Shown here piece after piece: positions 8,093 through 33,500 of a DNA stretch of 64,000 bases. A model generated the notes under the pieces. It was not told the DNA's origin. It did no database searches and saw nothing but the letters and a program-made list of their open reading frames with translations. The translations under genes were made by a program, and so were the position numbers. The stretch's first letter is position 1. Every line of letters begins with the position of its first letter. The stretch is taken from assembly GCA_947449005.1 (NCBI GenBank), contig CANFPP010000001.1:8442-72441 (forward strand), given 5' to 3'. The DNA comes from Holosporales bacterium (GTDB taxonomy: Bacteria > Pseudomonadota > Alphaproteobacteria > Paracaedibacterales > CANFPP01).

Positions 8093-8131
8093 TGTAAAAT
8101 ACCCCAAATTAATTAAAGAATAACGTTCTTC

Positions 8132-9994
8132 ATGAAAAAATCTTCAGTAAAGCTAACTTTAACATTATTGATGCTGGGCTTAATGTGCACCAGTCTTAAT
8201 GCATCAACGTTATCTTCTGAGGAAGCTGCCACTATAATTCAAAGAAAAGTAAGGCTTTATTTTGATAGAAATATAGATAGAAAACTCAGTAAAATGGACG
8301 GTGAATTTTCTAAAGAAGAAATTGATATTACTGCTTTAAGTAAACTGGTGTGTGCTAGGCTTCTTTTCTTAGTATATCCTAGCATTCAAGATGGAAGCAG
8401 AGCTATCCGATTTTGCAAAAAAGGACTTTTAAATCATCCCGTCTTCAGATTTCTCGGCTTAGATTATTTGGCTACTATTTACAGTTCTAATTCAGTTCAT
8501 AAAAATTTACCAGAAGCGGCTGAATGCTACCTGGAGCTTGTGGAGTTGTATGCGGACCAGCCATTAGAGCAACTCAAAGTATTAGTAGCGTTATTGAATC
8601 TTTATAAAACTGAAGGTGATGATGATCAAACAAAAACAAAGAGCATTATTCAAAGAATTGTAGAAATGCAAATCAGTGATTCGACTGAATATTTAGAAGC
8701 TCTTCAATCATCGTCTCAACTTTTAACTGATGGAAGCGATAAAATTAAAGACATCGGAAGAGCAATACAAATTCAAGAAAGACTTCGTGAACACAGCGAA
8801 TACAAGTTATCAAGTTTGCAAAAACTATCTAGTATTTACGAACATAATCCGGATCATAAAAATCCAGAAAAATTGGTTGAATGCTACCTTGAGTTTATGG
8901 AGTTGTATGCGGACCAGCCATTAGAGCAACTCAAAGTATTAGTGAGTTTATTGAAACTCTATAACACTGAAGGAGAGACATTTAATCCAGAAGAAGCGAA
9001 TAATATTGTTCAAAGAATATTAGAAATGCAAGCTCACGAAGGACTTCGTGGAAATAATGAGTTCAAGCTACCAAGCTTACAACAATTATCTTATATTTAT
9101 GAACATGATCCGGTTCATAAGAATCCAGAAAAATTAGCTGAATGCTACCTGGAGCTTGTGGAGTTGTATGCGGGCCAGCCGTTAGAACAACTAAACATAT
9201 TAGCGCGTTTATTGAAGCTCTATATAGCTGAAGAAGCGGCATTTAATACTGAAGAAGCAAAGGCTAGAGCTCATATAATCTTGATAGATTTCGCTGCAGA
9301 TCCGACTCCATCTTTGAAAGCGCAGGTTGCCTTATCAGACTTATATTTCCTTCATTCAGACCTTTCAACACCTGAAGAAATAATACGTATAAATACGAAA
9401 ATTGTTGAGAGAGCCTCAGAATTAGAAGCGGGATCATCGGATTTGATTAATGCTCATCGACGTTTAATAGAAGTCTATAAAGCACAGCAAGATATTGAAG
9501 CAGAAAGAACAACATACCTGAGTTTATTCAATTATTGTGAAAATGCCTCTATAGCGACTGAGTGTTATCATGAGCTTGTAAAGGCAGACCAACCGTTAAT
9601 GAAACTCAATATATTAGCGCGTTTATTGAAGATTTATATAGCTAAAGAAGCGGCATTTAATACTGAAGAAGAAAAAACGACGGCTCAAGGTTTTTTGAAT
9701 TCTTTAACTGTAGATCCGACTGCATATTTGGAAACGCAGGTTGCTTTATCAGATTTATATTACCTTCATCCAGACCTTTCAACTTCTGAAGAGATAATTC
9801 GTATAAATACAGAGATTAACCGCCATGAGGAGTTAAAAGCAGGATCACAAGCCGTGATTAATGCACATAAACGTCTAATAATGGCCCATAATAAAAAAAT
9901 ACAAAAAATATACATAAGTCTGATCAAACGTTGCGGATCAGATAATAGGGCTCCTATTCTTCAAGAATACAATAAGTTCATTAAAAACAAATAA
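8132..9994 (+). CDS. Secreted IQ-motif / alpha-helical (TPR-like) repeat protein, paralog 1 (620 aa)
   Basis: Signal peptide ...LMLGLMCTSLNA/S. IQ-like IIQRKVRLYFDR at 8237-8269. Repeated module of about 120 aa (AECYLELVELYADQPLEQLKVLV.LL.LY.TEG...). C-terminal cap is shared with paralog 4. Confidence 0.8.
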   Translation: MKKSSVKLTLTLLMLGLMCTSLNASTLSSEEAATIIQRKVRLYFDRNIDRKLSKMDGEFSKEEIDITALSKLVCARLLFLVYPSIQDGSRAIRFCKKGLLNHPVFRFLGLDYLATIYSSNSVHKNLPEAAECYLELVELYADQPLEQLKVLVALLNLYKTEGDDDQTKTKSIIQRIVEMQISDSTEYLEALQSSSQLLTDGSDKIKDIGRAIQIQERLREHSEYKLSSLQKLSSIYEHNPDHKNPEKLVECYLEFMELYADQPLEQLKVLVSLLKLYNTEGETFNPEEANNIVQRILEMQAHEGLRGNNEFKLPSLQQLSYIYEHDPVHKNPEKLAECYLELVELYAGQPLEQLNILARLLKLYIAEEAAFNTEEAKARAHIILIDFAADPTPSLKAQVALSDLYFLHSDLSTPEEIIRINTKIVERASELEAGSSDLINAHRRLIEVYKAQQDIEAERTTYLSLFNYCENASIATECYHELVKADQPLMKLNILARLLKIYIAKEAAFNTEEEKTTAQGFLNSLTVDPTAYLETQVALSDLYYLHPDLSTSEEIIRINTEINRHEELKAGSQAVINAHKRLIMAHNKKIQKIYISLIKRCGSDNRAPILQEYNKFIKNK

Positions 9995-10017
9995 ATAACA
10001 CAGTGTGCAAGCTTTAG

Positions 10018-10163
10018 TAAGAGAACAGTCTGGATCCCCGCCTGCGCGAGGATGACAGGGGGGGGGAAAACGAGCGGAATTCACTCGCACAATTTTTATT
10101 GCTTTCCTCATAATCTTCGCTCTCTCCATCGTCATGCTCGCGAGGGCGGAGATCCAGGTTGTT
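10018..10163. mobile_element. MITE-like palindromic element, family A (full copy)
   Basis: Hairpin-containing terminal inverted repeats AACAGTCTGGATCCCCGCCTGCGCGAGGATGAC ... GTCATGCTCGCGAGGGCGGAGATCCAGGTTGTT. The internal part is homologous to the copy at 30008-30192. No coding capacity. Confidence 0.75.
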
Positions 10164-10324
10164 TATGGTTGAGCAGTTAAAAATGATTTCCTAGAAATCT
10201 TCACACTTTATTGAGTAAAGTTTTATTATTATTAGTGATAACTTTAAGATTGAATTTTCCATTTCTGTTTAATACATTGAATTTCCACCCTTATAAAGGG
10301 TTATTATTATTGAAAGAGAAATGA

Positions 10325-11506
10325 ATGTTTATTAAAAATACTACAATAAAATTAGCTTCAACATTCCTAACACTTAGCTTAATGTGCACATGTCTTCATG
10401 CAGCAGAATTTACTGAAGAGCACCGAGATACAGCCGCTGTTAAAATTCAAAGGCATTATAGAGGTGAAAAAGTCAGGAAACTATTTCAAGAGATTGACAC
10501 AGAAGCAGAGATCATAGCTCAAAATATGCAACAAAATCCTAACTTGGCCAAAGTAGCTTTCACTACTCATATAAAATCATTAGGAGAAAACAGCACTATT
10601 AATGATATTTTGACAGCAGAAGTGTGGTGCCAAATTGCTAGAGATCTAGCGCCAGAAAATGTAGAAGTATTTAACACTTACCTTGAGACATTGAGGATTT
10701 GTGAAGACCCAATTAAACGACAGATTGCCTCACTCATAAAAAGTTTGACCATTCAAAATATAGATAAGAAAAAAGAAGTGCTCCGGGAAATAGAAACTTC
10801 CAATTATCCTGTTTTTAAAAACGCTTACTATGGAATATTGGCTAGAGCTCTTAGGGATTCCAAAGATATAGATCAAGCTCAAGAATATCTAATGAGATTA
10901 TTGGAATTACCTAAGCAGTATCACGTCAGAGCATATAAAAACCTAGCAGATCTTAATACTTCAGATGCTGAGCGAAAATTTTATTTAAGAAGGATTATTA
11001 AAATTGGCAGACCTGAACAAGCAGTAGCAGAAGCCAAATCTGACCTTGAACAAATGGCAAAAAAAAGCCTTGAGCTTGCTGATTCATATGATAATGGATC
11101 CGACTCCAATTTTTACAACCCACAAGAAGCTTTAAGAATATACAGATCCCTTTTAGAGGACCCACAAACACTAAATACCGATGATATTAATTTTCGTATA
11201 GCTTCTATCTTGACTTCTGGTCCAGCTGACGTACAAGACAAAAGTAAAGCCATAGAAATTTATAAGGCAATTCGAAATCGAGAAGGTAATAAAGGTTCTA
11301 GCTATTATTGGAGTGCTGCATACTATCTTATAGATAACTATATAGGTCAAAATCAATATTCTGAAGCACTTGGTCTAGTAACAGAAGATTTAAATGATCC
11401 AGAATGGCAATTTAGTGAGGAATTAAAAACGATTTATCAAAATGGATCAGACGAAATTCGTGAGGCCATTGATAGTTCTGAGGCTTTAAGAAGTAAGCTT
11501 CCCTAG
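10325..11506 (+). CDS. Secreted IQ-motif protein, paralog 2 (393 aa; N-domain-only version)
   Basis: Signal peptide ...LSLMCTCLHA/A. Canonical IQ motif IQRHYRGEKVRKLF (10445-10486). The N-domain is homologous to the N-terminal 330-350 aa of paralogs 3 and 4 (DPIKRQIASLI, SNYPVFKNAYY, FYNPQEALRIYRSLL). Confidence 0.8.
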   Translation: MFIKNTTIKLASTFLTLSLMCTCLHAAEFTEEHRDTAAVKIQRHYRGEKVRKLFQEIDTEAEIIAQNMQQNPNLAKVAFTTHIKSLGENSTINDILTAEVWCQIARDLAPENVEVFNTYLETLRICEDPIKRQIASLIKSLTIQNIDKKKEVLREIETSNYPVFKNAYYGILARALRDSKDIDQAQEYLMRLLELPKQYHVRAYKNLADLNTSDAERKFYLRRIIKIGRPEQAVAEAKSDLEQMAKKSLELADSYDNGSDSNFYNPQEALRIYRSLLEDPQTLNTDDINFRIASILTSGPADVQDKSKAIEIYKAIRNREGNKGSSYYWSAAYYLIDNYIGQNQYSEALGLVTEDLNDPEWQFSEELKTIYQNGSDEIREAIDSSEALRSKLP

Positions 11507-11590
11507 CCAACAGGTGATAGAGGAATCGAATATGGATCAGATAGCGACTAGAGAAACGATACGGATCTACTGATATTTATTCATTCTCTG

Positions 11591-11682
11591 TCGTCATTCC
11601 AGCAAAAGCGGAAATCCACATAAAACACGGATTGCATTAACCTAATTAAGAAACCTGAATCCCCGCCTCCGCGGGGATCACG
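11591..11682. repeat. Two family-A hairpin arms in outward orientation
   Basis: CGTCATTCCAGCAAAAGCGGAAATCCA (11591-11617) and CCTGAATCCCCGCCTCCGCGGGGATCAC (11653-11680). Confidence 0.6.
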
Positions 11683-11779
11683 GTTAAATCCACCATATTT
11701 GCGGGATTGATCTTAAAGCCCTTCATTACGTTATATATATTTAATTTATGTAACGTATGGGAGGTTATCTTTATTATTC

Positions 11780-11808
11780 TTGAAATTATTAATACAAATA
11801 CATATATG
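11780..11808 (+). promoter_or_regulatory. Conserved promoter of the IQ/helical-repeat family (copy 2)
   Basis: TTGAAA, 17-nt spacer, TATATG. Flanks are shared with 8064-8092. Confidence 0.5.
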
Positions 11809-11845
11809 TGTAAAATATCTAAAATTAATAAAAGAATAATATCCT

Positions 11846-14800
11846 ATGAAAATGTCTATAGTCAAAACAACGTCAACGGTATTAATGCTGAGCTTAATAG
11901 GCACCAGCGTTCATGCAGCAACTACATATTTTGATGAAAAGACTACTATTAAGATTCAAAGACTTTATCGTGATAGAAAACTCAACCAAACTTTTGAAAC
12001 GTTAAACCAAACATCAAAAAATATAAAGAGAGGTGTTGTTCCTGCACCTACTGAAGCAGATTTAGAAGAAAGCATCGCATCTTTAAACGAACACAGTGAT
12101 TTTAAAAGCATGGGATTGCCTGCTGTATACTTCATCAACGCAAAGAAGGATTTAGATATCAGACCTTTTATAGAACGTTATCAAGGATATATTCAAAGTC
12201 AAATGGCAAGTCGCGATCCAATCAGGAGACAGATAGCCTCCCTTATCATGGCGGAGCTTGCAACTAAAGCTGCTGCAGAAAATGATAAATTCAATACAGC
12301 GCAGTATTTTTTGCAAGAAGCTATAAGTTCTGACTATCCATTTTTTAAACACAATGCTTATCTACAATTATCTGGGTTGGCTAGAGATTATGCGGATAAA
12401 AACCAAGCCATTAACTGTTTAAGAAAAGGACTAATTTTACCCAACAGATATCATGCTAGCATTTACAGGAAGTTAGCTTACGTTGTTGATTCTGAAGAGT
12501 ACAAACCTTCGCGGGAACGCTACTTGAAGCAGATTATTGAAATTGGAACTCCGACAGAGAAAATAAAAGCACTCATGAGTCTTGCTTATTTGTATGGTCG
12601 CAATCAATCGAATTCAGCATTTTACAGACCAAGCGAAGCTCTAGATATTTATGATTCTCTTTTAGCTAATCCACAGCTGATTTCTTTTTTAGACACAGAT
12701 AATGTTCACATACAAATTGCAATTATTCGTGCGTTTTCTCCTGATGAAGAAATAAAAAACGTAGATAGAGCAGTAGAGATTTTAGATGGTATTCTTTTAA
12801 ATAGACCTAATGACTGGAATTATTCAAATGCTGCAACCCAACTGATAAGTATTTTTATTACAAAAGATCCCGCTAGAGCTTTTAGCTTAGCACGAGAAGC
12901 TTTAAGCAATCCAAATCTTCAACAACCCTTCAAAATATACATAGAAAAAGCATTAGCGGATTTATATAGACATGGTCCGGAAGGAATTAAAAACCCTCAA
13001 GCAGCTTTGCAAATCTTAGAAAATCTAGCGGCTATGACTTTTGGCCCAACTTTTGCTCCCGATTATCATTCAATTGTGCTTTTGTCGCTGACTCATCATT
13101 TGGTGTATGGAGATGCTACAGTTAAAAACGCAGCAAGAGCAATACAGATTCACGAAGAACTTCGTAAAGACAGTAAAGTGAAGCTGGCAGCTTTAATCGA
13201 CTTAGCTCATATTTATCAACATGATGCAGAGCATAAAAATCTATTAAAAGCAATTGAATACTTTGAAGAAATTTTGCTATTGCACGAGGGTAAACCGGTA
13301 GAACAATTCAACACTTTAATCCGTTTATTATCTCTCTATACGACTGAAGGAGAGACACTTAATCTGGAAAAAGCACAAATTATCCAGCAAAGAATTTCAG
13401 AAATGCAACCTATTATTGAATCCAATAATTCGAAGGAAAGTTTCGTGGCCCTTCAAAGCCTGGCTAGTCTTTTGACATTTGGAAACGATAGAGTTAAAGA
13501 CAGAGGAAGAGCAATACAAATCCTCGAAGAACTTTCTAAACACAGAGAATCTAAACTATTAAGCTTACCGATCTTAGTTTATATTTACGAGCATATTGCA
13601 GAGCATAAAAATCCAGTAAAAGTGACTGAATGCCTTAATAAGCTTGTAGAGTTGTATGCTGACAAACCATTAGAGCAACTAAAAGCATTAACAAAATTAT
13701 TGAAGATTTATACAACTGAAGGAACAGCGTTTAGCATTGAAGAAGCGAAGGCTGCTGTTCAAAGAATTTTGACTCATTCCGCTGTCGACGGTACAGCACG
13801 TTTGGAAGTACAAGTTGCTTTATCAAAGCTTTTTCATCTACATCCTGAATCAGGCTCAACCGCAGAAATAATTGATGTAAATAATGAGCTGGCACATAAC
13901 CCTATGGCAACTCCATCGGATGTGGGAGATGCTCATCGTCGTTTGATAGCAGCTTACTTGACACAACGGAGTTTTGAACAAGTTGTTACAACATATGAGC
14001 ATTTTTTAACACGTGCTGTAGATTGGCAACGTACTGGTGTTATCCTAGATTTTATCTCCTTTCTTGAAAATCCAGATCATGCAACTGTACAAAACCCTGC
14101 ACGTGTGACTGAGCTTCGAGCGCTTCTCCCGCAACCTGCAGTATTTATGACAGAAGAACTTGTGCAGTTACCTGGTATTGTTGCTGGATTTGGTGGAGCG
14201 GGTCACGTTGATCCTTATTTTTCACCAGAGATGATTGCAAATAGAAAAGCATCACTGCTTGCATTAAGTGGAGATCATTTTGACCAAGTGAACTATCAAA
14301 CAAACTTAGAAAGAACGATAGCTGAAGTTAAAGAAGCCATTGCACAATATGGTGCACGTGACGCTGAATTTGCTGCTACAGCCGTCGTAGCTACTGAGGT
14401 TTTTGAAACAGGGAATACTCATCCTTATAGCTATCGTCCTACTGTTCAAGATCTTGATTATCAATTTTCCATTGATGATTTGGGCAGGGAGATGGCATAT
14501 GGAGAAGCTTTGGTTCGTATCTGGGCACGCATTACTCACCATCCTGATGTAAATCATTTAAAGGATTTAATAGTGTTGCAACTTGCAGCAGCGATTGATC
14601 CTGATGGCCACATTGTCTGTCCCGTTGGAAAAATAATGCGTCATTTCCAAGCAATGGAAGGTACTTTTCCTGACGTTCGTGCTGTGACATTATCGTTGGA
14701 GAATGCTTTTTCAGGTTTTGCAAAAAATGAGCAAAAACTCATTGATGCACTACCAGGAGAGCATCCTTTAAAAATCCTCGAATCCAAAATTGGAGAAATA

Positions 14801-15037
14801 AGAAAGGCAGCAGAATATAAAGTAAATACTGATACTTGGGTTAGTCCAGAGTACCAAGGAAAATTTGAATTCTTATCGAGCGATGATCAAATCTTGCTAA
14901 AGAATCATTACGAGCAGATGGTTTTGAAATTTGAACAAGATTTATTGAAATCAAGAGATACGCTTTCTGAAACTGAGAAGGCATTTGCGAGGAGAGAAGT
15001 TGGTGAATATCTGAGTGTGACTTGGTTTGTGGGATAG
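11846..15037 (+). CDS. Secreted IQ-motif / helical-repeat protein, paralog 3 (1,063 aa), with a unique C-terminal domain of about 360 aa
   Basis: Signal peptide ...LMLSLIGTSVHA/A. IQ-like IQRLYRDRKLNQTF (11954-11995). Family N-domain plus repeat modules. From about aa 700 (nt about 13943) the sequence is non-repetitive and is absent from the other three paralogs. Confidence 0.8.
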   Translation: MKMSIVKTTSTVLMLSLIGTSVHAATTYFDEKTTIKIQRLYRDRKLNQTFETLNQTSKNIKRGVVPAPTEADLEESIASLNEHSDFKSMGLPAVYFINAKKDLDIRPFIERYQGYIQSQMASRDPIRRQIASLIMAELATKAAAENDKFNTAQYFLQEAISSDYPFFKHNAYLQLSGLARDYADKNQAINCLRKGLILPNRYHASIYRKLAYVVDSEEYKPSRERYLKQIIEIGTPTEKIKALMSLAYLYGRNQSNSAFYRPSEALDIYDSLLANPQLISFLDTDNVHIQIAIIRAFSPDEEIKNVDRAVEILDGILLNRPNDWNYSNAATQLISIFITKDPARAFSLAREALSNPNLQQPFKIYIEKALADLYRHGPEGIKNPQAALQILENLAAMTFGPTFAPDYHSIVLLSLTHHLVYGDATVKNAARAIQIHEELRKDSKVKLAALIDLAHIYQHDAEHKNLLKAIEYFEEILLLHEGKPVEQFNTLIRLLSLYTTEGETLNLEKAQIIQQRISEMQPIIESNNSKESFVALQSLASLLTFGNDRVKDRGRAIQILEELSKHRESKLLSLPILVYIYEHIAEHKNPVKVTECLNKLVELYADKPLEQLKALTKLLKIYTTEGTAFSIEEAKAAVQRILTHSAVDGTARLEVQVALSKLFHLHPESGSTAEIIDVNNELAHNPMATPSDVGDAHRRLIAAYLTQRSFEQVVTTYEHFLTRAVDWQRTGVILDFISFLENPDHATVQNPARVTELRALLPQPAVFMTEELVQLPGIVAGFGGAGHVDPYFSPEMIANRKASLLALSGDHFDQVNYQTNLERTIAEVKEAIAQYGARDAEFAATAVVATEVFETGNTHPYSYRPTVQDLDYQFSIDDLGREMAYGEALVRIWARITHHPDVNHLKDLIVLQLAAAIDPDGHIVCPVGKIMRHFQAMEGTFPDVRAVTLSLENAFSGFAKNEQKLIDALPGEHPLKILESKIGEIRKAAEYKVNTDTWVSPEYQGKFEFLSSDDQILLKNHYEQMVLKFEQDLLKSRDTLSETEKAFARREVGEYLSVTWFVG

Positions 15038-15243
15038 AGATTTACCATTCGTCATTTTTTCAAACATCATCTTGATTGTTGTCTCCCCTCTCTCTGACAT
15101 TCTCACGAGGTGGGGGGATAGAGGGTAGAGATGTGAAAAACAACACTCTCCTTAGCGTGCCCCCAAGATTATCCTGGAGACCTCCCCCACACTGAATTGA
15201 ATGATTAAATAGAATAGAGGGTAAGATTATTACAGTTTCATCC

Positions 15244-15272
15244 TTGAAATCATTTTCACAAGTAATTATATA
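15244..15272 (+). promoter_or_regulatory. Conserved promoter of the IQ/helical-repeat family (copy 3)
   Basis: TTGAAA, 17-nt spacer, TATATA. Followed by ...CTAATAAAAGAATAATATCCCTATG, as in copy 2. Confidence 0.5.
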
Positions 15273-15311
15273 TGTAGAATATTCCAGCCCTAATAAAAGA
15301 ATAATATCCCT

Positions 15312-18300
15312 ATGAAGAAACCTATAATCAAAATCACGTCAACGGTATTAATGCTAAGTTTAATGAGCACTGCTCTTAATGCAGCAACGTCATTTATTAG
15401 GGATGAGGAGAGAGAAGCTGCGGCTTCTAAAATTCAGGTATTTTATTGGGACAAGAAACTACGTAGCTTAGCGGATGAATTATCTACAGAAGCACAGGAG
15501 ATGGGGAAAAGAACTGCGGGTAATCTAGCGTTGATTGCAGAAGAAATGCAAAAAAACATAGATTCGTTAAATAACTCCAATCGTTTTACAAGTACCGCCA
15601 TGCTTATGGGTATATTGCTTTCTAACCTAGAAGGTCTAGATACAGCACCTCTTTTGCAAAAATATCAAGCCTATCTTGAAAGACAAATAGCGAATGGAAG
15701 CTCCATCCAGAAACAACAAGCTTCTCTTATGAAAGTAATTATTAAAAACAAGAAGAGTAATAAAGAGGCTGAATTAAACGAGATGAGAGAGTTATTACAA
15801 GAAACAATGAATTCTCCTTACCCCGTTTTTCGGCTCTATGCTTATCATCTGCTCTTTGATGCGGCTAAAGACTCGGGAGATAAAGAAGCAGCTCTTCACT
15901 ATTTATATAAAGGAATGTTGTCATCTAAAAGAAATCACGCTCGTATTTATGAGGAATTAGCTGATTTTGACAATTCAGAAGATTATAAGCCTAAGAAGGA
16001 ACGCTATTTAAAGAAAATTATTAAAATTGGCACCCCAAAAGAAAAAGCGGAAGCACTCACTAAGCTTATTGTTTTATACGCCAATCAAAACTCAGCATTT
16101 TACAGACCGAGTGATGCTCTAAAACACTATCAAGATCTTATAAGTGATCCACAACTTGTTCGTTTTCTAGGTACAGATAATGATATTCATATACGGATTG
16201 CATGTCTCTTTGCATTTTCTCCTGATGAAACAGTAAAAAACGTAGAGAAAGCAATAGAGACTTTAGACGACATACTGTCAAAAGAACCTAATCACTGGAA
16301 TTATTCATATGCTACAAGTAGTTTGATAAGTATTTACGTTTCAAAAGATCCTGCTAGAGCGCTTAGATTAGCATTAGAAGCTCGAGAAAACCCAAATCTT
16401 CCAGAACCTTTCAAAACCTATATAGAAAGATCATTAGCAGATTTATATAGGGATGGTCCGGAAGGAATTAAAGACCCTCAAGCAGCTTTGCAAATTTTAG
16501 AAAATCTAGCGGCTATGACTTTTGGCCCAGTTTTTGCTTCCGATTATCATTCAAATGTGCTTTTGTCGCTGACTCATCTTTTGGTGTACGGAGATGCTAC
16601 AGTTAAAAACGCAGCAAGAGCAATACAGATTCACGAAGAACATCGCGAGAACGAGGCATTGAAGTCACGAAGACTGGCGGATTTAGCGTATATTTACAAT
16701 TATGATGCAGTTCATAAAAGTCCAGTGAAATTGGCTGAATGCTACCTGGAGCTTATAGAGTTCTATGCGGACCAGCCGTTAGAGAAACTCAAAGTTTTAG
16801 TAAATCTATTGAATCTCTATGACACTGAAGGAGAGACATTTAATCCAGAAGAAGCGAATAGTATTGTTCGAAGAATTTTAGAAATCCAAAGTGGTGATTC
16901 AGTGGAAGCTTTGGAAGCTCTTCAATCATGGGGTCAGCTTTTGACACAGGGGACTATTGTCGTTAAAAACATAGAAAGAACCATTCAATTTTACGAAAGG
17001 GTTCGTAGGCAGAGTGAGTTTAAATTATCAAGCTTACAAAAATTATCTTATATTTACGAACATGATTCAGTTCATAAAAATCCAGTAAAATTAGCCGAAT
17101 GCTATCTGGAACTTATAGAGTTCTATGCAGACCAGCCGTTAGAGAAGCTCAAAGTTTTAGTAAATCTATTGAATCTCTATGACACTGAAGGAGAGACATT
17201 TAATCCAGAAGAAGCGAATAGTATTGTTCGAAGAATTTTAGAAATCCAAAGTGGTGATTCAGTGGAATCCCTAGAAGCTCTTCGAGGATTAATTCAGCTT
17301 TTAGCAGACGGAACTATTGCAGTTAGAAGTGTAGAAAGAAATATTCAGCTTTACGAAGGGCTTCTTGAAAATAGTGAATTCAGGGCATTAAGTTTGAAAA
17401 AGCTTTCTAATATTTACACCACTGATCCAGTCCATAGAAATCGATCAAGAGCACTTGAATATTATCTAGAGCTTGTAGAGCTGTATGCAGATCAACAGAT
17501 AGAGCAACTCAAAGTTTTAGAGAATTTATTAGGTCTCTATGAAACTGAAGGTGATGATGATCAGGAAAAAACGAAGAGTATCATTGAAAATATTTTAGGA
17601 ATGCAATCTAGGAATTCGGTTGAATATCTAGAAACTCTTCAAAGACTTGTTCACAGTTTGATGTATGGAAACGCTAAAATTAGAGATATCGGAAAAGCAA
17701 TACAAATCCTAGAAGAGCTTTGTACGCACACCAATTTCAAAATATTAAATTTAAAGAAATTATCTAGTATTTACGAGTATTATCCTATCCACAGAAATCT
17801 ATCAAAAGCACTTGAATGCCAATTAGAGCTTGTGGAGTTGTATGCAGACCAACCGGTAGAGCAGCTTAAAGTTTTAGTAAACCTATTGAATCTCTATGAC
17901 ACTGAAGGAGAGACATTTAATCAAATCGAAGCGGATAATATTGTTCAAAAAATTATACAAATGCAAACTGGTGATTCAGTGGAAGCTTTGGAAGCTCTTC
18001 AATCATGGGGTCAGCTTTTGACACAGAGTACTATTGTCGTTAAAAATACAGAAAGAACCATTCAATTTTACGAAAGGGTTCGTAGGCAGAGTGAATTTAA
18101 ATTATCAAGCTTACAAAAATTATCTTATATTTACGAACATGATTCAGTTCATAAAAATCCAGTAAAATTAGCCGAATGCTATCTGGAACTTATAGAGTTG
18201 TATGCGGACCGCCGACTAGAACAATTGGATATCTTGGCGCGTTTATTGAAGCTCTATATAGCTGAAGGTATGACATTTAATACTGAAGAAACAAAGGCTA

Positions 18301-19121
18301 ACGCTCACAGAATTTTGACAGATTTACCTGCAGAGCCGGCTCCACTTTTAAATGTGAAAATTGCTTTATCAAACTTATATTACCTTTATCCTGACCTTTC
18401 AACACCTGAGGACATAACCAGTATAAATACGGAAATTCTTAGTCGGTCTTCAGAATTGGAAGCAAACTCATCGGACTTAATTAATGCCCATAAAAGTCTA
18501 ATAGAAAACTATCACAGACAAGGAAATGTTGAAGAAGAAAAAACAACATATCTACGTCTATTCAACAGTTGTGAAAATATTTCTATACTGACTGAATGTT
18601 ATCAACAACTTATAATATTATATGCAGATCAACCCTTAGAGCAACTCAACGTATTAGCACGCTTATTAAAGAGGTATATAACTGGAGAAACGACGTTTAA
18701 TACTGAAGAAGAAAAAGCAAGAGCTCAAGAAATCTTGACCGGTTTGTCTACAGATCAAAATGTTTTAGCCGCGGACCCGACCGCATCTTTGAAAGTACAG
18801 ATTGCTTTATCGGACTTATATTATCTTCATCCTGATCTTTCAACAATTGAGGAAATAACGAGTATAAACACAGAAATAAGTCGTTGTGAAGAATTAGAAC
18901 GAGGATCAGCAGAAGTAATTAATGCTCACCAACGTTTAATAAATATTTACAAAGCACAGCAAGACTTTGTAGCTGTTCGAAAAACATACATAAGTCTCCT
19001 CAAACGCAGTAGAGGAGATAATCAAGCCTCGGCTCTTGCAGAATACAACACCTTCATTAGGGAAAATCTTACGTTAAAAAGCACACTTACAACATCTACA
19101 GAACAGAATTTGGTCTCTTGA
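15312..19121 (+). CDS. Secreted IQ-motif / helical-repeat protein, paralog 4 (1,269 aa)
   Basis: Signal peptide ...LMLSLMSTALNA/A. IQ-like IQVFYWDKKLRSLA (15432-15473). Family N-domain, then roughly six or seven copies of the 120-aa module, two with near-identical DNA. C-terminal cap is homologous to paralog 1. Confidence 0.85.
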   Translation: MKKPIIKITSTVLMLSLMSTALNAATSFIRDEEREAAASKIQVFYWDKKLRSLADELSTEAQEMGKRTAGNLALIAEEMQKNIDSLNNSNRFTSTAMLMGILLSNLEGLDTAPLLQKYQAYLERQIANGSSIQKQQASLMKVIIKNKKSNKEAELNEMRELLQETMNSPYPVFRLYAYHLLFDAAKDSGDKEAALHYLYKGMLSSKRNHARIYEELADFDNSEDYKPKKERYLKKIIKIGTPKEKAEALTKLIVLYANQNSAFYRPSDALKHYQDLISDPQLVRFLGTDNDIHIRIACLFAFSPDETVKNVEKAIETLDDILSKEPNHWNYSYATSSLISIYVSKDPARALRLALEARENPNLPEPFKTYIERSLADLYRDGPEGIKDPQAALQILENLAAMTFGPVFASDYHSNVLLSLTHLLVYGDATVKNAARAIQIHEEHRENEALKSRRLADLAYIYNYDAVHKSPVKLAECYLELIEFYADQPLEKLKVLVNLLNLYDTEGETFNPEEANSIVRRILEIQSGDSVEALEALQSWGQLLTQGTIVVKNIERTIQFYERVRRQSEFKLSSLQKLSYIYEHDSVHKNPVKLAECYLELIEFYADQPLEKLKVLVNLLNLYDTEGETFNPEEANSIVRRILEIQSGDSVESLEALRGLIQLLADGTIAVRSVERNIQLYEGLLENSEFRALSLKKLSNIYTTDPVHRNRSRALEYYLELVELYADQQIEQLKVLENLLGLYETEGDDDQEKTKSIIENILGMQSRNSVEYLETLQRLVHSLMYGNAKIRDIGKAIQILEELCTHTNFKILNLKKLSSIYEYYPIHRNLSKALECQLELVELYADQPVEQLKVLVNLLNLYDTEGETFNQIEADNIVQKIIQMQTGDSVEALEALQSWGQLLTQSTIVVKNTERTIQFYERVRRQSEFKLSSLQKLSYIYEHDSVHKNPVKLAECYLELIELYADRRLEQLDILARLLKLYIAEGMTFNTEETKANAHRILTDLPAEPAPLLNVKIALSNLYYLYPDLSTPEDITSINTEILSRSSELEANSSDLINAHKSLIENYHRQGNVEEEKTTYLRLFNSCENISILTECYQQLIILYADQPLEQLNVLARLLKRYITGETTFNTEEEKARAQEILTGLSTDQNVLAADPTASLKVQIALSDLYYLHPDLSTIEEITSINTEISRCEELERGSAEVINAHQRLINIYKAQQDFVAVRKTYISLLKRSRGDNQASALAEYNTFIRENLTLKSTLTTSTEQNLVS
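16716..18198 (+). repeat. Intragenic 360-bp (120-aa) module repeats with near-identical stretches
   Basis: 16789-16908 is identical by eye to 17149-17268. 16894-17121 is nearly identical to 17971-18198. Confidence 0.8.
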
Positions 19122-19362
19122 TTTCGTAGGCGACAATGATACCTAAATGACAAGCCCAGAGTGATGATTAAATTGCACGATGTCATCATCCTGGGTCTTG
19201 ACACCTCCACAAAGCCCCTCATTTAACTGATGACAGTGATAGAAACAATTCAATCAATAAGATAAGTAATAAAATTGGTTATAAATTGAAATAAACTCTT
19301 GTCATTTAAAATAGAAAGATTATGATCTCGTCTAAATGTAACAATTTACCTTTGAAGAGAAA

Positions 19363-20145
19363 ATGTTCGCTGGAGCTATTGATCATAACAAAACTGAGCA
19401 AATGGTTGAAAGCTTGGGGGAAAGTAGCGATCTGAACGAGCTTAATATAAACATCAAAAAGATTTTTGAATCCTTTGATATAGAGAAATTTTCAATCGCA
19501 GGATACTGCGATAATGAGTTTCAAATTTTTGATACTTATCCCCCCGATTGGATGTCACATTACATTTCAAGCCAATATCATTTCCATGACCCAATCCTCT
19601 CATGGAATAAAATTCGACTCCCTTTTAGCTGGAGCAGCAATAAAATAAAAAATCTAACGCCAACACAGGAGCGTTTATTTTCAGAAGCTCATGATTTTGG
19701 AATTAATACAGGCATAACCTTATCTGTTCCCAGCCAGACTGGGCAAATATTTCTTACACTCTTGGATCATGAAAATCATCATCCTTTCGCACTGTATGCG
19801 CTTTCTTTAGCGGCTCAATCTTATTGGCACTTTACACAAATAACAAAAGCAAAGACTTTATTAAGCTTATTAACAGCGCGTGAACGTGAGATTATTTTTT
19901 TAAAAACAAAAGGATTGGCCATGAAGACCGTGGCCACAACTCTGAACATATCTGAATCAACTGTCGTTTTTCATTTAACAAATATCAAAAAAAAACTAAA
20001 AGTTTCAAATAGTGAACAAGCCCTTTTTCTTATTGGATTAGCAGTTAGCCAGTTACCAGGAAGTAATTTTCAAAACTTAGATAAAGAAAACTTTAATAGT
20101 AATGTTCACCCAGCTGCTCTTCGCTCTTCATTATTATCTTCTTGA
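19363..20145 (+). CDS. luxR: LuxR-family AHL-responsive transcription regulator
   Basis: Autoinducer-binding-domain residues (PPDWMSHYISSQYHFHDPIL...W). C-terminal HTH LTAREREIIFLKTKGLAMKTVATTLNISESTVVFHLTNIKKKL. Confidence 0.85.
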   Translation: MFAGAIDHNKTEQMVESLGESSDLNELNINIKKIFESFDIEKFSIAGYCDNEFQIFDTYPPDWMSHYISSQYHFHDPILSWNKIRLPFSWSSNKIKNLTPTQERLFSEAHDFGINTGITLSVPSQTGQIFLTLLDHENHHPFALYALSLAAQSYWHFTQITKAKTLLSLLTAREREIIFLKTKGLAMKTVATTLNISESTVVFHLTNIKKKLKVSNSEQALFLIGLAVSQLPGSNFQNLDKENFNSNVHPAALRSSLLSS

Positions 20146-20783
20146 GTATATGCGTAGATTGGTTTTACGTAAGATAGGAGAGGCTTTGTAAAATCATAAC
20201 CTAATTGTGCAAGTAGTTTTTCATAGCTTTGCCAAGAAAACACGTAGCTCGTTACCAACAACTGATTTCCATTGAAATTTCTTTCCACAACAGGTTCCCC
20301 AGAATATCCATACCGACTATACAGTTTTTTAAACGCAGGGAATGAAACAACAAGACACATTTTTACATTCTTTAACTCTAAAGAAAAATGTGCATAAGCC
20401 GCAGAAATACTGGCTGTAACGTGGCTGACCATTTGAGGCGTATAATTTTCATCAAAATTGTGATCAACAGCTAGTCTACTTTGTTCCCAGCACCCAACTT
20501 TCTTAAAATTTTCTAAGTTAGGGAGCAGAAACCTAAAGGGACCATCGAACATGCATGGATTTATCATCTCAATAAGACGAATACAACCTCTTACAATCCC
20601 GCGTTCATCTTTATAAATTATGTACGTGGCATGTTTCTCGTCATATTCATCTTTTTCCATACCGTGGTTACTTGTAACATCCCACTTTAGTTTTTCGAAA
20701 AAAACTTTATGCCGTAGACGATACATATTATCAAGGTCGTGCCTATGAAATTCATAATTACTTGGATCAATGAGAATTAGCAT
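20106..20783 (-). CDS. luxI: LuxI-family acyl-homoserine-lactone synthase
   Basis: MYRLRHKVFFEKLKWDV...EKDEYD...ATYIIY...RGCIRL...CWEQSRLAV matches conserved LuxI blocks (R..VF...L.W.V, E.D.YD, WE.SR). Convergent with luxR, and the 3' ends overlap by 40 nt. Confidence 0.85.
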   Translation of the reverse strand: MLILIDPSNYEFHRHDLDNMYRLRHKVFFEKLKWDVTSNHGMEKDEYDEKHATYIIYKDERGIVRGCIRLIEMINPCMFDGPFRFLLPNLENFKKVGCWEQSRLAVDHNFDENYTPQMVSHVTASISAAYAHFSLELKNVKMCLVVSFPAFKKLYSRYGYSGEPVVERNFNGNQLLVTSYVFSWQSYEKLLAQLGYDFTKPLLSYVKPIYAYTQEDNNEERRAAG

Positions 20784-20841
20784 CTTTATTTCCTTAAAAC
20801 ATATTATCTAATGGATATATCTGTATAAAAAAAACAAATTC

Positions 20842-20856
20842 AAGTACGCGGTACTT
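20842..20856. promoter_or_regulatory. Candidate lux-type box upstream of luxI
   Basis: Palindrome AAGTAC-gcg-GTACTT, extendable to 8-bp arms with one mismatch. Its centre lies 66 nt upstream of the luxI ATG. Confidence 0.3.
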
Positions 20857-21083
20857 TATTTTTATTCTCTAGAACAAATTCTTTAATTAATAATTATTGA
20901 TATGTTTTATATACTTTAAGGGGAACTTATCTGATATTGATTCATAATTCCACGCGAAAGTTCTAGAATAATTCGCATCTGATATCTCTTAAGTAGAAGA
21001 TAAACCCTTGACGAATTGGTCGTTTTTCGGGTAGGAAAGAACTAAATATAATGAATTTTAAGATGATCTAGGAGAGAATTAAC

Positions 21084-26634: not shown

Positions 26635-27372
26635 GTGCGTATATTACTAATAGAAGATGATTCTGCAACTGCAAAAGGCCTTGAGGTTATGTTGCGTTCC
26701 GAAGGCTTTGTCTGTGACTCAACAGATCTTGGTGAAGATGGCTTGGAAATTGGAAAGTTGTATGAATACGACATCATTCTTCTTGATTTAATGCTTCCTG
26801 ATATAGACGGCTATGAAGTTTTAAGACGTCTGCGCGCAGCACAAATAAAAACCCCTATTCTTGTGCTGTCAGGCCTAAGTGAAACTGAAGATAAGGTAAA
26901 AGGACTTGGTTTTGGTGCTGATGACTATATAACCAAACCTTTTAGCAAAGTTGAGTTACTAGCCAGAATTCATGCGGTTGTACGTCGATCTAGAGGGCAC
27001 TCTGATTCGATGATTCGCACGGGTAGACTCGTTGTTAATCTTCAAAACCGCACAGCAAATGCAGATGGAATTACAATCAACTTAACAAGTAAAGAATATG
27101 CAATTCTTGAATTACTCTCCCTTCGCAAAGGAACAACGCTCACCAAAGAAATGTTTTTAAACCATCTCTATGGCGGCATGGACGAACCAGAATTAAAAAT
27201 TATAGATGTCTTTATTTGCAAACTTAGACGCAAAATTGGTGAAGCAATAGGTGATGACAGCTGTATTGAAACAGTTTGGGGCAGAGGTTATGTGCTGCGT
27301 GATCCGTCCGATATTCCAGTAACGACAGCTCCAGTCAATAGAGAGACAGCTCTCGCCTTCGGTCCAGCTTAA
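26635..27372 (+). CDS. ctrA: Cell-cycle response regulator CtrA (OmpR family)
   Basis: GTG start with GGAG RBS. Near-identical to blocks recalled from Caulobacter CtrA: [65 protein letters not shown]. Confidence 0.92.
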
Positions 27373-28070
27373 GCGCAATCCTCAATCTTTGGTTGGCCCT
27401 TGCGCTTTTTTAAACTCATCATGTTTTTAAATCGAGTAATCTTATTTACTTTTTTAAGAACGAGAGGGGAAGCACTAAGAGGAGATTGACGCCAATAACG
27501 CCAAACAACAGCTGGAGGAATGTTTAAAAAAATATGACCAAGTCTTTTTTTACGCAACCCCAGTTTCTTTGACGATAAAGGAGACATAGGACCATAGGTA
27601 AATTGCAATAAACTGCCGGTTTCTGACAATATACTAAAACAAGCCTCTGCTACACCTATTTGCTCGTCCGCTGATAGGTTTATCATTGGAATACCGGAAA
27701 TAATTGTTGTTACTGAACCAACAATTTGTGCTGGCAGTAAATTCTTTAAATCCTTTGCATCACCCTCAACAACCATCACATTCGGAAAATTCTTTCTCAA
27801 AAACACACACATTGCAGGGTCTAGCTCAACAATTACAAGCTTATCAGGAGTTACACCTGCACGCAGCAATGCCTGAGTAAAGCGCCCCGTCCCTGCTCCT
27901 ATTTCTACAATGAGATAATCAGCAACTAAATCAACGTGGCTGGTGATAAAATTAGCAAGCATATTAGAGCTAGGGAAAAGTGCCCCAAGAGATTTTGGAT
28001 TTTTCATAAGTTGACGTAGAAAAAGCAGGTTTTCGTCTCGTTTGCGAATTACTGGCTCTGGAACATTCAT
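27369..28070 (-). CDS. Class I SAM methyltransferase, phospholipid N-methyltransferase-like (COG3963 type), copy B
   Basis: Track ORF runs to 28226. The internal start MNVPEPV at 28070 is preferred because it removes the overlap with the upstream gene. Motifs [19 protein letters not shown] and [15 protein letters not shown]. Confidence 0.6.
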
Positions 28071-28080
28071 TCTGCAATCC

Positions 28081-28707
28081 TTAAGAATGAGCGTCTTGTT
28101 TATGATAACGCCAAACAAATCCTGGAGGAATATTAACCCACAAGGAGCCTTCACGAATCCCATAATAACTTGAAAGCGTCGATAAAGGAGACTTTGGGCT
28201 ATAGGTAACATGTAATATTGTGCCATCTGGCTGCATCACATCAAAGCACGCATTAATAATGTTCGAACGCACCTGCTTATCTAAGTACATCAAGGGAACA
28301 ACAGAAACAACGGTTGTAACAGCACCACTCCACCCAGAAGGTAAAAGATCGGGCAAACATGCAGCATCACCGTTAATAACAGTTAAATCAGGCAAGCTTT
28401 TACTCAAGAAATCACAAAGATCGGGATCAAGTTCAACAACAATTAGATTTTCAGGAAGCACACCAGCAGCCAACAGTGCTCGTGTAAGCCTGCCTGTTCC
28501 AGCGCCTATCTCAACGATTCGTTGCTGAGCAGGGTTTTTTAAAAGACTTGCCGCAAGCGCAGCTAAACGAGGTGTAATCGGCGCCAGGGTCCCTAACCTT
28601 GTAGGGTTAGCCAACCAACGACGAAAAAACAAACGATTCTCACGACTTCGAATGTCACGTTCCTGGACGTTTGCTAAACCCATCAAATCCCTGCAATAAA
28701 ATTTCAA
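28081..28707 (-). CDS. Class I SAM methyltransferase, phospholipid N-methyltransferase-like, copy A
   Basis: [47 protein letters not shown]. Paralog of the downstream gene. Confidence 0.6.
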   Translation of the reverse strand: MKFYCRDLMGLANVQERDIRSRENRLFFRRWLANPTRLGTLAPITPRLAALAASLLKNPAQQRIVEIGAGTGRLTRALLAAGVLPENLIVVELDPDLCDFLSKSLPDLTVINGDAACLPDLLPSGWSGAVTTVVSVVPLMYLDKQVRSNIINACFDVMQPDGTILHVTYSPKSPLSTLSSYYGIREGSLWVNIPPGFVWRYHKQDAHS

Positions 28708-30596: not shown

Positions 30597-33500
30597 ATGT
30601 TTAAATATTTTTTATTCAACAGATCTTTAATATTGCTTTCAACTGTCTCTGTAGCTGCTCTCTACACTTCAGATGCGGCTGCTGCTATGCCTGCAAACGA
30701 ACCTCCGAAATGGTATCCTGAAGCGCATGTAGACCTGAAGCAGGGAACTAAACGCGGAATCGCGCAGGTTGGAACCATAACTCCTCTTGCCCAAAACGCT
30801 ACATCTCTTGCTTATCTTGATTTGCGTTTGATGTCTGACACAAACAAAGCAAAAGAAGGAAACTTTGGTGCGGGTGGAAGATGGCTAAAAGATGGTCGTT
30901 ATATCCTGGGAATGTATGCCTTTTATGATAGACGCTATACAGAGCTTAATAACGTTGTTAATCAGGTAACTGTTGGCTCTGAAATAATGAGTGATACCTG
31001 GGATTATCGCGTAAACGTGTATGTCCCTGAGAATCTTTCAAAAACAATAGTTAAAGAAACTAAGCCAGAACAGAAGACCACCTTTGCTGGTTATACCGAA
31101 ATTCAAAAAAGCACCCAATATTTAGTAAAAGAAGTTCCCCTAAGAGGTTTAGACCTTGAAATTGGGAGAGTCATCCCAGGATTCCCTGCCCTTAGAGTCT
31201 ATGGAGCTTATTATCATTTCCAAGGACGTGATGGTGTCGAGTCTGTAATTGGTGGACGTGTCCGAGCAAATCTAAAATTAAACAAATTTTTCTCATTCGA
31301 AACAGAAGTAAGTCGCGATAACGTCAGAAAAGAAGTTGCCTTCATTGGTATGAGACTGACGATTCCGCTTAGCAAAAATGGCTATAAACCATCAACACTA
31401 ACATCGCTTGAACAACGCATGGTCGAACAGCCAATGCGAGATATTGACGCTGTTACAAATACACAGAACAATACCCAAGTCAAAAAAGACGTGATTAAAG
31501 ATAATTTGCGCCACGTAAATGAAAAAGATGATCCCCTTGCCGATGGTAGCGCTGAACATCCATATCACATAGACAAAACAGATCATCTTGTAGAGTTAGG
31601 CGAGTCAAATGAAGGCGGAGGAACTCCAGAAACTATCGTATGGCAGAATGGAGTTTTAATAAGACGCGCAGACACCACAGATTTTCTTCATGAAAAATTT
31701 GGAACTTCAATAGAAACTGCTTTAGCACTTGGAAAGTTCAAGAAAATCCTAAACAGGATACGCCTCAACAAAGAGATTGAAGCGCGTAGACTGCAAGAAG
31801 TCAAATTTGCTAAAGAAGCAGCAGAACACGAAGCGTCAACAAAAACAAAAGCAGGCAGTTTTTATGAAGCTGCAAAAGCAGCAAAAGCTGCAAAGGATTT
31901 TGCTGAAGAAGAAGAGAAATTAAAATTTGAAAAAACAAAATACGAACACTTTGAAGCACAAGTAGACTTAGAAGCGGCAAAAGAAGCAACGCGAAAAGCA
32001 GCTAAAGATGCGGAACACAAGCAACAAGCTCAGGCAGAAGCAGCCGCTAAACATTGGAAAGAAACCACTAAGAAGAACCGTTTAGAGAAAGAAAGATTAG
32101 CTAGAGAGCAGGAAGAAGCTAGACACGTTAAAGAAGAAGATGAAGCAAGGCTCGCGGCGTTAAGAAAAGAATTTGCTGATGCTCAAAAAATTAAAGAAGC
32201 CGAACAAAAAGCAAGAGATTCTGCAGCAGCTGAACAAAGACTAAAAGATGAAGAAGCACAAAGAAAACTTGTTGAAGCTGCTCAAAAATTAAAAGCAGAA
32301 CAAGACGCTGAAAATATTAGACGTGCTAATGAAGCTGAAAGAATAAGACTTAAAAAAGAAGCTGATGCCCTTCAACTCGAAAAAGAAAAAGAAGTAGAAG
32401 CTCGCCGTCAAGAAATGATTCGTCGAGCAAAGAAAATTGCTGACGAAGAAGCACGAAGAGTTGAGCTGAAGAGAATCGCTGACAAACTTATTGAAGACGC
32501 GCGCATCGCTAAGGAAATCGAAGATAAGAGAATCGCTGATAAACTCATCGAAGATGCTCGTATCGCTAAGGAAATCGAAGACAAGAGAATCGCTGATAAA
32601 CTCATCGAAGATGCTCGTATCGCTAAGGAAATCGAAGACAAGAGAATCGCTGATAAACTCATCGAAGACGCACGCATCGCCAAGGAAATCGAAGATAAGA
32701 GAATCGCTGATAAACTCATCGAAGACGCCCGCATCGCCAAGGAAATCGAAGACAAGAGAATCGCTGATAAACTCATCGAAGATGCTCGTATCGCTAAGGA
32801 AATCGAAGACAAGAGAATCGCTGATAAACTCATCGAAGATGCTCGTATCGCTAAGGAAATCGAAGATAAGAGAATCGCTGACAAACTCATCGAAGATGCT
32901 CGTATCGCTAAGGAAATCGAAGACAAGAGAATCGCTGACAAACTCATCGAAGACGCTCGTATCGCTAAGGAAATCGAAGAAAAGAGAATCGCTGATAAAC
33001 TCATCGAAGACGCACGCATCGCCAAGGAAATCGAAGAAAAGAGAATCGCTGATAAACTCATCGAAGATGCTCGTATCGCCAAGGAAATCGAAGACAAGAG
33101 AATTGCTGATAAACTCATCGAAGATGCTCGTATCGCTAAGGAAATCGAAGATAAGAGAATCGCTGATAAACTCATCGAAGATGCTCGTATCGCTAAAGAA
33201 ATCGAAGATAAGAGAATCGCTGATAAACTCATCGAAGACGCACGCATCGCCAAGGAAATCGAAGAAAAGAGAATCGCTGATAAACTCATCGAAGACGCAC
33301 GCATCGCCAAGGAAATCGAAGATAAGAGAATCGCTGATAAACTCATCGAAGATGCTCGTATCGCTAAAGAAATCGAAGATAAGAGAATCGCTGATAAACT
33401 CATCGAAGACGCCCGCATCGCCAAGGAAATCGAAGATAAGAGAATCGCTGATAAACTCATCGAAGATGCTCGTATCGCTAAGGAAATCGAAGATAAGAGA

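Follow-up and report, generated by a model that had tools for sequence, protein, structure and literature searches.

The 64-kb stretch of Holosporales DNA that we analysed (the window) contains one luxR homolog and one luxI homolog, which encode a putative receptor for acyl-homoserine lactones (AHLs, or acyl-HSLs) and a putative AHL synthase. The two genes face each other and overlap at their 3′ ends. Within the 64-kb window, we found no further copies of LuxR or LuxI and no proteins with the ligand-binding domain (LBD) only. The features of the pair, with the expression signals that we could recognize next to it, are:

19363-20145, plus strand: luxR homolog (260 amino acids), with an N-terminal autoinducer-binding domain, a C-terminal GerE/LuxR helix-turn-helix (HTH), and a tail of about 39 amino acids
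20026-20142, plus strand: clade-specific C-terminal extension of LuxR (residues 222-260), ending in LRSSLLSS (20119-20142)
20106-20145: convergent 3′ overlap of luxR and luxI (40 nucleotides), covering the last 13 codons of both proteins, including the conserved C-terminal motif of LuxR
20106-20783, minus strand: luxI homolog, AHL synthase (225 amino acids), with its ATG at 20783
20795-20791, minus strand: Shine-Dalgarno sequence of luxI (AAGGA, a good match)
19299-19326, plus strand: predicted luxR promoter (TTGTCA-16-TATGAT), with 10 of 12 matches in the promoter scan (a consensus match only)

In the list of open reading frames (ORFs), the 3′ ends of both genes are set by stop codons, and the choice of start codons therefore has no bearing on the overlap. 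The G+C content of the locus is 35-36%, and across the window it ranges from 34% to 44%. The coordinates that had been given in the original prediction for the two ORFs, their overlap (20106-20145), and a palindrome upstream of luxI (20842-20856, 66 nucleotides from the ATG) are all exact.

An intact pair of AHL synthase and receptor homologs

LuxI matches the Pfam family of autoinducer synthases (PF00765, Autoind_synth) with an E value of 1e-27 (97.2 bits, against a cut-off of 24), and the FeeM and Acetyltransf_5 profiles score far below this. When we compared LuxI to the Protein Data Bank (PDB) with phmmer, the closest solved synthases were LasI (1.5e-10) and TofI (2e-10). BjaI and RpaI, which are of the acyl-CoA type, also match, but more weakly. 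Among 20 homologs, R24, F28, D45, D48, R69, E100, S102, and R103 of LuxI are invariant, and W34 is nearly so. All of these residues align to LasI, whose catalytic and S-adenosylmethionine (SAM)-binding residues we take to be R23, F27, W33, D44, D47, R70, E101, S103, and R104. All of the conserved catalytic and SAM-binding residues of the synthases LasI, TofI, and EsaI, which depend on acyl-acyl carrier protein (PDB 1ro5, 3p2f, and 1k4j), align with LuxI. The kinship with LasI is remote, however, and LuxI differs from these synthases by an invariant, clade-specific CMFDGPF block and by a variable C-terminal tail that is unalignable across the clade. Given the conserved catalytic residues, LuxI would use SAM and an acyl carrier to make an acyl-HSL.

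LuxR matches PF03472 (Autoind_bind; 7e-19, 68 bits) and PF00196 (GerE; 5e-14, 52 bits), both well over the gathering scores. Among solved structures, CviR is the closest to it in sequence (9e-17, about 26% identity), followed by RhlR, TraR, LasR, QscR, and SdiA. In the AlphaFold model of LuxR (predicted local distance difference test, or pLDDT, of 75.7), the top Foldseek matches in the PDB are all AHL receptors (TraR, CviR, SdiA, QscR, and RhlR). Among 16 homologs, Y59, W63, Y67, D76, W90, G117, E174, and G184 do not vary. The nine signature residues of the family are W57, Y61, D70, P71, W85, G113, E178, L182, and G188 in TraR numbering. The corresponding W63, Y67, D76, P77, W90, G117, E174, and G184 are present in LuxR, and the position of L182 has a conservative change (I178). 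In the alignment, Y59 corresponds to a ligand contact of CviR (Y80). As a member of this family, LuxR would bind an acyl-HSL via its conserved Tyr/Trp/Asp pocket and then bind DNA as a dimer.

The original prediction had described a complete LuxI/LuxR pair encoded tail to tail, and this is borne out by the Pfam domains, the fold match, and all of the family-defining residues. Neither protein reaches the NCBIfam equivalog cut-offs for TraI, TraR, or SdiA. Because of this, the acyl chain and the mode of action of LuxR (activator or repressor) cannot be read from homology, and by these sequence scores, the pair is a divergent member of its family.

At E values below 1e-42, LuxI has 43 homologs, and the named ones are from metagenome-assembled genomes (MAGs) of Paracaedibacteraceae, Alphaproteobacteria, or Pseudomonadota. 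Several of those from Paracaedibacteraceae or Alphaproteobacteria MAGs are already named acyl-HSL synthase. LuxI homologs of the clade are also found on contigs from MAGs that are labelled Chthoniobacterales, Candidatus Pelagibacter, and Chlorobiaceae (L009, L010, and L011), which suggests that the contigs were mis-binned or that the module was transferred horizontally.

Tandem pairs of luxI paralogs are frequent in the relatives, and some relatives have one or two proteins that contain only the autoinducer-binding domain (about 170-190 amino acids, no HTH) beside a full-length luxR. The window has neither arrangement. Tandem luxI and/or LBD-only genes are present at these loci:

L003: 5301-6705
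L004: 6001-7360
L010: 6001-7235
L011: 4332-5571
L014: 2832-3389
L005: 7400-7951
L006-L008: also present

The sole unexpected feature of the locus is the motif at the end of the LuxR tail. We compared the LuxR tails from the window, L012, L016, L013-L015, L003, and L002, along with the proteins P0046 and P0049. An extension of about 35-45 amino acids past the HTH is common to the LuxRs with long overlaps. The middle of the extension is not conserved, but in 8 of the 10 homologs that have it, it finishes with L-x-x-L-L plus two or three residues (for example LRSLLLS, LHSLLGV, LNMLLAAA, or LKQLLAA, with LRSSLLSS in the window). The final codons of the tail fall inside the overlap with luxI. In the AlphaFold model, residues 234-260 have a pLDDT under 50 and are predicted to be disordered, with a low-confidence terminal helix at 249-258. 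The tails from L003 and L002 finish in -LLAAA or -LLAA, like the ssrA-type degron that is recognized by ClpX.

The overlap of luxR and luxI

The layout of the pair is catalogued. A survey of 1,403 genomes identified convergent luxR and luxI genes that overlap by 2-79 bp, termed the R2 topology, in 53 genomes (PMC3386692), and the pair in the window, with its convergent genes and 40-nucleotide overlap, falls within this range. In Chromobacterium, cviI and cviR overlap by 74 bp (PMC5339254). As in the R2 circuits (Gelencser et al. 2012, PMC3386692) and in CviI/CviR (PMC5339254), the genes in the window are convergent and overlap at their 3′ ends, and they encode the same kinds of proteins, a two-domain receptor and a GNAT-type synthase. 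In contrast to those systems, the host is an alphaproteobacterium related to Holosporales rather than a beta- or gammaproteobacterium, and LuxR has the extra tail of about 39 amino acids.

We compared the junction between the two genes across 14 related loci. Seven of these are convergent and overlapping, four are convergent with a gap, and three are co-directional:

Convergent, overlapping: L012, 37 nucleotides; L016, 37; L013, 77; L014, 49; L015, 29; L003, 55; L004, 11 (window, 40)
Convergent, with a gap: L011, 1 nucleotide; L005, 5; L010, 12; L002, 39
Co-directional, with intervening genes: L006-L008

Thus, the length of the convergent junction is not conserved, as it varies from a 77-nucleotide overlap down to a 39-nucleotide gap. 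Instead, the length of the overlap follows the clade-specific LuxR tail, and LuxRs without the tail overlap luxI by 11 nucleotides at most. Tight tail-to-tail junctions are also common elsewhere in this genome. Counting ORFs of 120 amino acids or more, the window has six convergent junctions; besides luxR and luxI, one more pair overlaps (26635-27372 with 27369-28226, by 4 nucleotides), and another is separated by an 18-nucleotide gap (23530/23549).

The terminator scan found no convincing terminator separating luxR and luxI, so full-length transcripts of the two genes are mutually antisense. We considered the one terminator-like site downstream of luxI, on the minus strand within luxR (19675-19656), as a terminator for luxI and rejected it as not conserved: its stem is formed by the conserved LTPxQ codons, and its T-run is specific to the window.

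The original prediction had proposed that these antisense transcripts might form a built-in interference circuit. The overlap and the antisense full-length transcripts hold up. The circuit is not a new idea, as mutual interference was already raised for the R2 topology in a paper that calls this mechanism "yet to be confirmed" (PMC3386692), and the length of the overlap is not conserved. Effects of the two transcripts on each other, by antisense pairing or by collision, are physically unavoidable. The question is whether these effects were selected, so that transcription of luxI into luxR lowers the level of the receptor, or the reverse, and shapes the switch. The convergent orientation does recur (12 loci including the window, 8 of them overlapping), there is no conserved terminator between the genes or just past them, and interference has been proposed before for this topology. 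But the junction drifts, luxI and luxR are co-directional with genes between them in L006-L008, and the window has other convergent gene pairs that abut or overlap. Furthermore, the LuxI tails are unalignable, while the LuxR tail motif accounts for luxR running on. We consider a selected interference device to be unlikely. More likely, the antisense effects are a tolerated by-product rather than a tuned circuit: the overlap would result from the LuxR tail, whose conserved end is encoded past the stop codon of luxI, together with the lack of an intergenic terminator.

The luxI promoter and a candidate LuxR-binding site

Upstream of luxI, we identified these features:

20815-20844, minus strand: predicted luxI promoter, with -35 CTTGAA (20844-20839), an 18-nucleotide spacer, and -10 ATATAT (20820-20815)
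20842-20856, no strand: 15-bp perfect palindrome AAGTACGCGGTACTT (AAGTAC-GCG-GTACTT), candidate LuxR-binding (lux-type) box
20954-20976, no strand: 23-nucleotide dyad GCGAA-N13-TTCGC, alternative candidate operator, 182 nucleotides upstream of the luxI ATG

The palindrome is centred at 20849, 66 nucleotides upstream of the luxI ATG, and it extends to 19 bp (8-bp arms) with one mismatch. Its right arm covers the first 3 bp of the -35-like hexamer CTTGAA. If CTTGAA-N18-ATATAT is the luxI promoter, then the centre of the palindrome would be at about -41 to -42 relative to the inferred start. Similar hexamers, CTTGAA-N17-[C/A/T]TATAT, precede the paralogous genes at 8132, 11846, and 15312, and eight loci (the window, L012-L016, L002, and L003) share a conserved ACTTGA[A/G]TTT block upstream of luxI. 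In class-II activation by TraR, LuxR, or LasR, the box is at -42.5, and the dyad in the window overlaps the predicted -35 element of the synthase promoter. LuxR would most likely act at the luxI promoter, and from the class-II activator position of the dyad at 20842-20856, it would give positive feedback.

In the window and in all of the compared loci, the palindrome element is confined to the region upstream of luxI. The arms can be compared across three loci:

Window: left arm AAGTAC, spacer CGC, right arm GTACTT
L012: left arm AAGTGC, spacer AGC, right arm GTACTT
L016: left arm AAGTGC, spacer AAC, right arm GCACTT

Mirrored changes in the two arms restore a perfect dyad in L016, with L012 as the intermediate, and the spacer drifts across the three sequences.

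Several observations weigh against the palindrome being a lux box. We scored inverted repeats with 6-bp arms, a spacer of 0-8 nucleotides, and at least two G/C per arm. By this criterion, a perfect inverted repeat occurs in 26% of 300-nucleotide Markov shuffles of the luxI intergenic region, and the window has 155 of them in total, so the palindrome alone is not statistically significant. There is one exact copy of the palindrome in the window, and its 4 matches with up to two mismatches, versus 2.2 expected, are not an enrichment. At the corresponding position of the alignment, L013-L015 lack the palindrome, even with their promoter blocks conserved. The luxI intergenic region is 93% identical across the window, L012, and L016, and the palindrome is no better conserved than the rest. 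Only three sequences, with one compensated pair of changes, underlie the covariation. Also, the boxes of TraR, LuxR, and LasR are even dyads of about 18-20 bp, whereas the core of the palindrome is 15 bp with an odd 3-bp spacer (or 19 bp with one mismatch) and lacks their CT-N12-AG signature. The candidate box AAGTAC-N3-GTACTT is also unlike the binding site of CviR, which we take to be CTGNCCNNNNGGNCAG. We could retain the proposal of a lux box for positive feedback in part: the palindrome abuts the -35-like hexamer and its symmetry is kept in L016 through a change in both arms, but taken alone it is at the level of chance, and it is missing from L013-L015. We view the palindrome as a credible candidate for the LuxR site, with a chance of being correct that is somewhat below even.

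There is an even chance that LuxR does not bind the palindrome at all and acts elsewhere, for example at 20954-20976 or outside the window. The palindrome would then be a repeat that arose by chance, a binding site for some other regulator, or an element between luxI and rpmB that works as an insulator or a weak bidirectional terminator. The abundance of such repeats and the loss of the palindrome in L013-L015 fit this alternative. So does the GCGAA-N13-TTCGC dyad, which is common to both subgroups. The outer arms of this dyad and its 23-nucleotide length are conserved not only in the window, L012, and L016 but in L013-L015 as well, which have UPF0060 instead of rpmB as the divergent neighbour. 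It lies about 160-180 nucleotides upstream of luxI across the subgroups (at about 4571-4593 in L013) and forms a 9-bp bulged stem in L013-L015. Its fold energies are not better than those of shuffled sequences. This dyad could be the real operator, which also counts against the palindrome. Other members of the clade have CTATCA-N4-TGATAG-like dyads (with CT-N12-AG) upstream of luxI instead (L005-L008, L010, and L011), but we found no match to this box in the window when allowing up to two mismatches. As for a terminator, an A-run and T-runs flank the palindrome on both strands, but as RNA, the palindrome is a weak hairpin (-3.4 kcal/mol, z = -0.68) that fails the terminator scan. As the main reading, we rejected an intrinsic terminator, whether for read-through from luxR or in the luxI leader. 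Two further points speak against the alternative as a whole: the palindrome directly borders the -35-like hexamer, and we roughly estimate that a mirrored substitution in both arms of L016, with L012 as the intermediate, would have a probability of about 0.05 by chance (given about 10% divergence of the site and one mirrored base).

Another alternative is that LuxR is a repressor of the EsaR/ExpR type, which would occupy the dyad without the signal and be released by the acyl-HSL, so that luxI is de-repressed rather than activated. The characterised repressor-type LuxRs (EsaR, ExpR, SmaR, and YenR) are typically convergent to their luxI, and because the dyad contacts the -35 hexamer, occlusion of the promoter is geometrically possible. 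On the other hand, CviR, the closest solved relative by sequence, likewise comes from a convergent overlapping pair, and it is an activator. Class-II activation would better explain a centre near -42, an overlap with the -35 hexamer of only 3 bp, and the suboptimal 18-nucleotide spacer. Also, a repressor of the EsaR type would have an operator at its own promoter, but at the luxR promoter we found neither a half-site of the palindrome nor a related dyad. We consider repression to be quite improbable. Overall, our preferred explanation is an AHL synthase/receptor pair, with the luxI promoter as the likeliest direct target of LuxR and with the overlap as a tolerated by-product of the tail, and we believe that this explanation is probably correct as a whole.

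Neighbouring genes, host lineage, and meaning

Four paralogous ORFan genes form an array beside the pair:

8132-19121: ORFan array, encoding proteins of 620, 393, 1063, and 1269 amino acids

The 1269-amino-acid paralog has an N-terminus like a signal peptide and long internal repeats, and the 393-amino-acid paralog matches the Pfam calmodulin-binding IQ motif (22.6 bits, with a threshold of 20.3). The original prediction had suggested that these IQ-repeat genes could belong to the LuxR regulon, for which the sequence gives no support. Upstream of the genes at 8132, 10325, 11846, 15312, 30597, and 38088, we found neither a copy of the palindrome nor a half-site. The three paralog promoters with CTTGAA-N17-[C/A/T]TATAT are near-identical and look like plain consensus promoters. 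Furthermore, only L012 and L016 retain this neighbourhood, in which large ORFans flank the pair on one side and rpmB-Vut_1-tgt on the other. The L013 and L014 pairs are found next to UPF0060, dksA, and a major facilitator superfamily (MFS) transporter.

Three side observations concern the sequences around the pair. A 14-mer (ATTAATTAAAGAAT) is present about 100 nucleotides upstream of luxI (20878-20891, minus strand) and in the 5′ leaders of two of the IQ-motif paralogs (8108-8121 and 11824-11837, plus strand). With up to one mismatch, there are 3 matches in the window versus 0.19 expected, with two of the three due to duplication of the paralogs. In the rpmB-proximal half of the luxI-rpmB intergenic region (20990-21083; 3858-3950 in L012), the window and L012 have almost 100% identity, compared with only 82% for LuxI. 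This segment is more conserved than coding DNA and may contain a strongly constrained leader or promoter of rpmB. Farther away, an ORF of 2474 amino acids (30597-38021) lies where the AT skew is very strong (up to 0.40) and has a match to the IQ motif (25.8 bits) and long shadow ORFs on both strands (32408-33811, minus; 32491-33603, plus), which suggests a highly repetitive, low-complexity coding sequence.

The window is a piece of ordinary chromosome. It includes der, bamB, apaG, rpmB, tgt, dnaX, lon, hscA, iscS, asd, and the RNase P and signal recognition particle (SRP) RNAs. The Rfam scan of the window found these two RNAs and one tRNA and no match at the luxR/luxI locus. The best named matches of Lon are from Candidatus Paracaedibacter symbiosus (76% identity) and Candidatus Odyssella (75%), with 78-80% identity to Alphaproteobacteria MAGs. 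DnaX has the DUF3646 C-terminal domain, which we take to be mainly alphaproteobacterial. Because of the Lon identities and the names of the LuxI relatives, these data point to an uncultured alphaproteobacterium related to Paracaedibacteraceae, a family within Holosporales. A metagenome scan that was anchored near rpmB yielded one true relative, as well as an unrelated GC-rich contig (L017).

Cultured relatives from Paracaedibacteraceae and Holosporales are obligate endosymbionts of amoebae. The window itself does not prove an intracellular lifestyle, which we infer from the affinity to Paracaedibacteraceae and from the nearby ORFans with eukaryote-like IQ motifs. The view that AHL signalling is unusual in such a lineage is mildly supported: this is a relative of amoeba endosymbionts, but there is a precedent in an endosymbiont, Sodalis (PMC2568817), and the lifestyle is assigned by taxonomic affinity. 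SogI/SogR of Sodalis glossinidius is a LuxI/LuxR system in a host-restricted, largely intracellular insect symbiont (PMC2568817). Sodalis is a culturable and recently host-restricted gammaproteobacterium, whereas the host association here comes from kinship with amoeba endosymbionts. A full-text search of one paper library for literature that links Paracaedibacter, Odyssella, Holosporales, Paracaedibacteraceae, or amoeba endosymbionts to luxI or AHLs found none.

In summary, the pair is an intact and largely ordinary AHL synthase and receptor in a catalogued tail-to-tail overlapping layout. These are known families in a known topology, and the new element is the host lineage. The locus adds little to the biology of quorum sensing in general: its domains, its convergent overlap, and its logic of autoinduction are all either textbook material or catalogued. 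A more ambitious reading, which we consider a long shot, is that protist symbionts of the Paracaedibacteraceae type have an AHL circuit lineage of their own that senses confinement or density in a host cell or vacuole, and that the motif of the disordered tail gained by LuxR is a protease degron or docking helix that sets receptor turnover and, being encoded within the overlap, couples the stability of the receptor to the evolution of the 3′ end of the synthase gene. What the intact and recurrent LuxI/LuxR lineage may mean is either a social, possibly extracellular phase in many of these bacteria or a signal whose build-up reports confinement in a host compartment. Both of these readings can be tested from the cloned genes alone.

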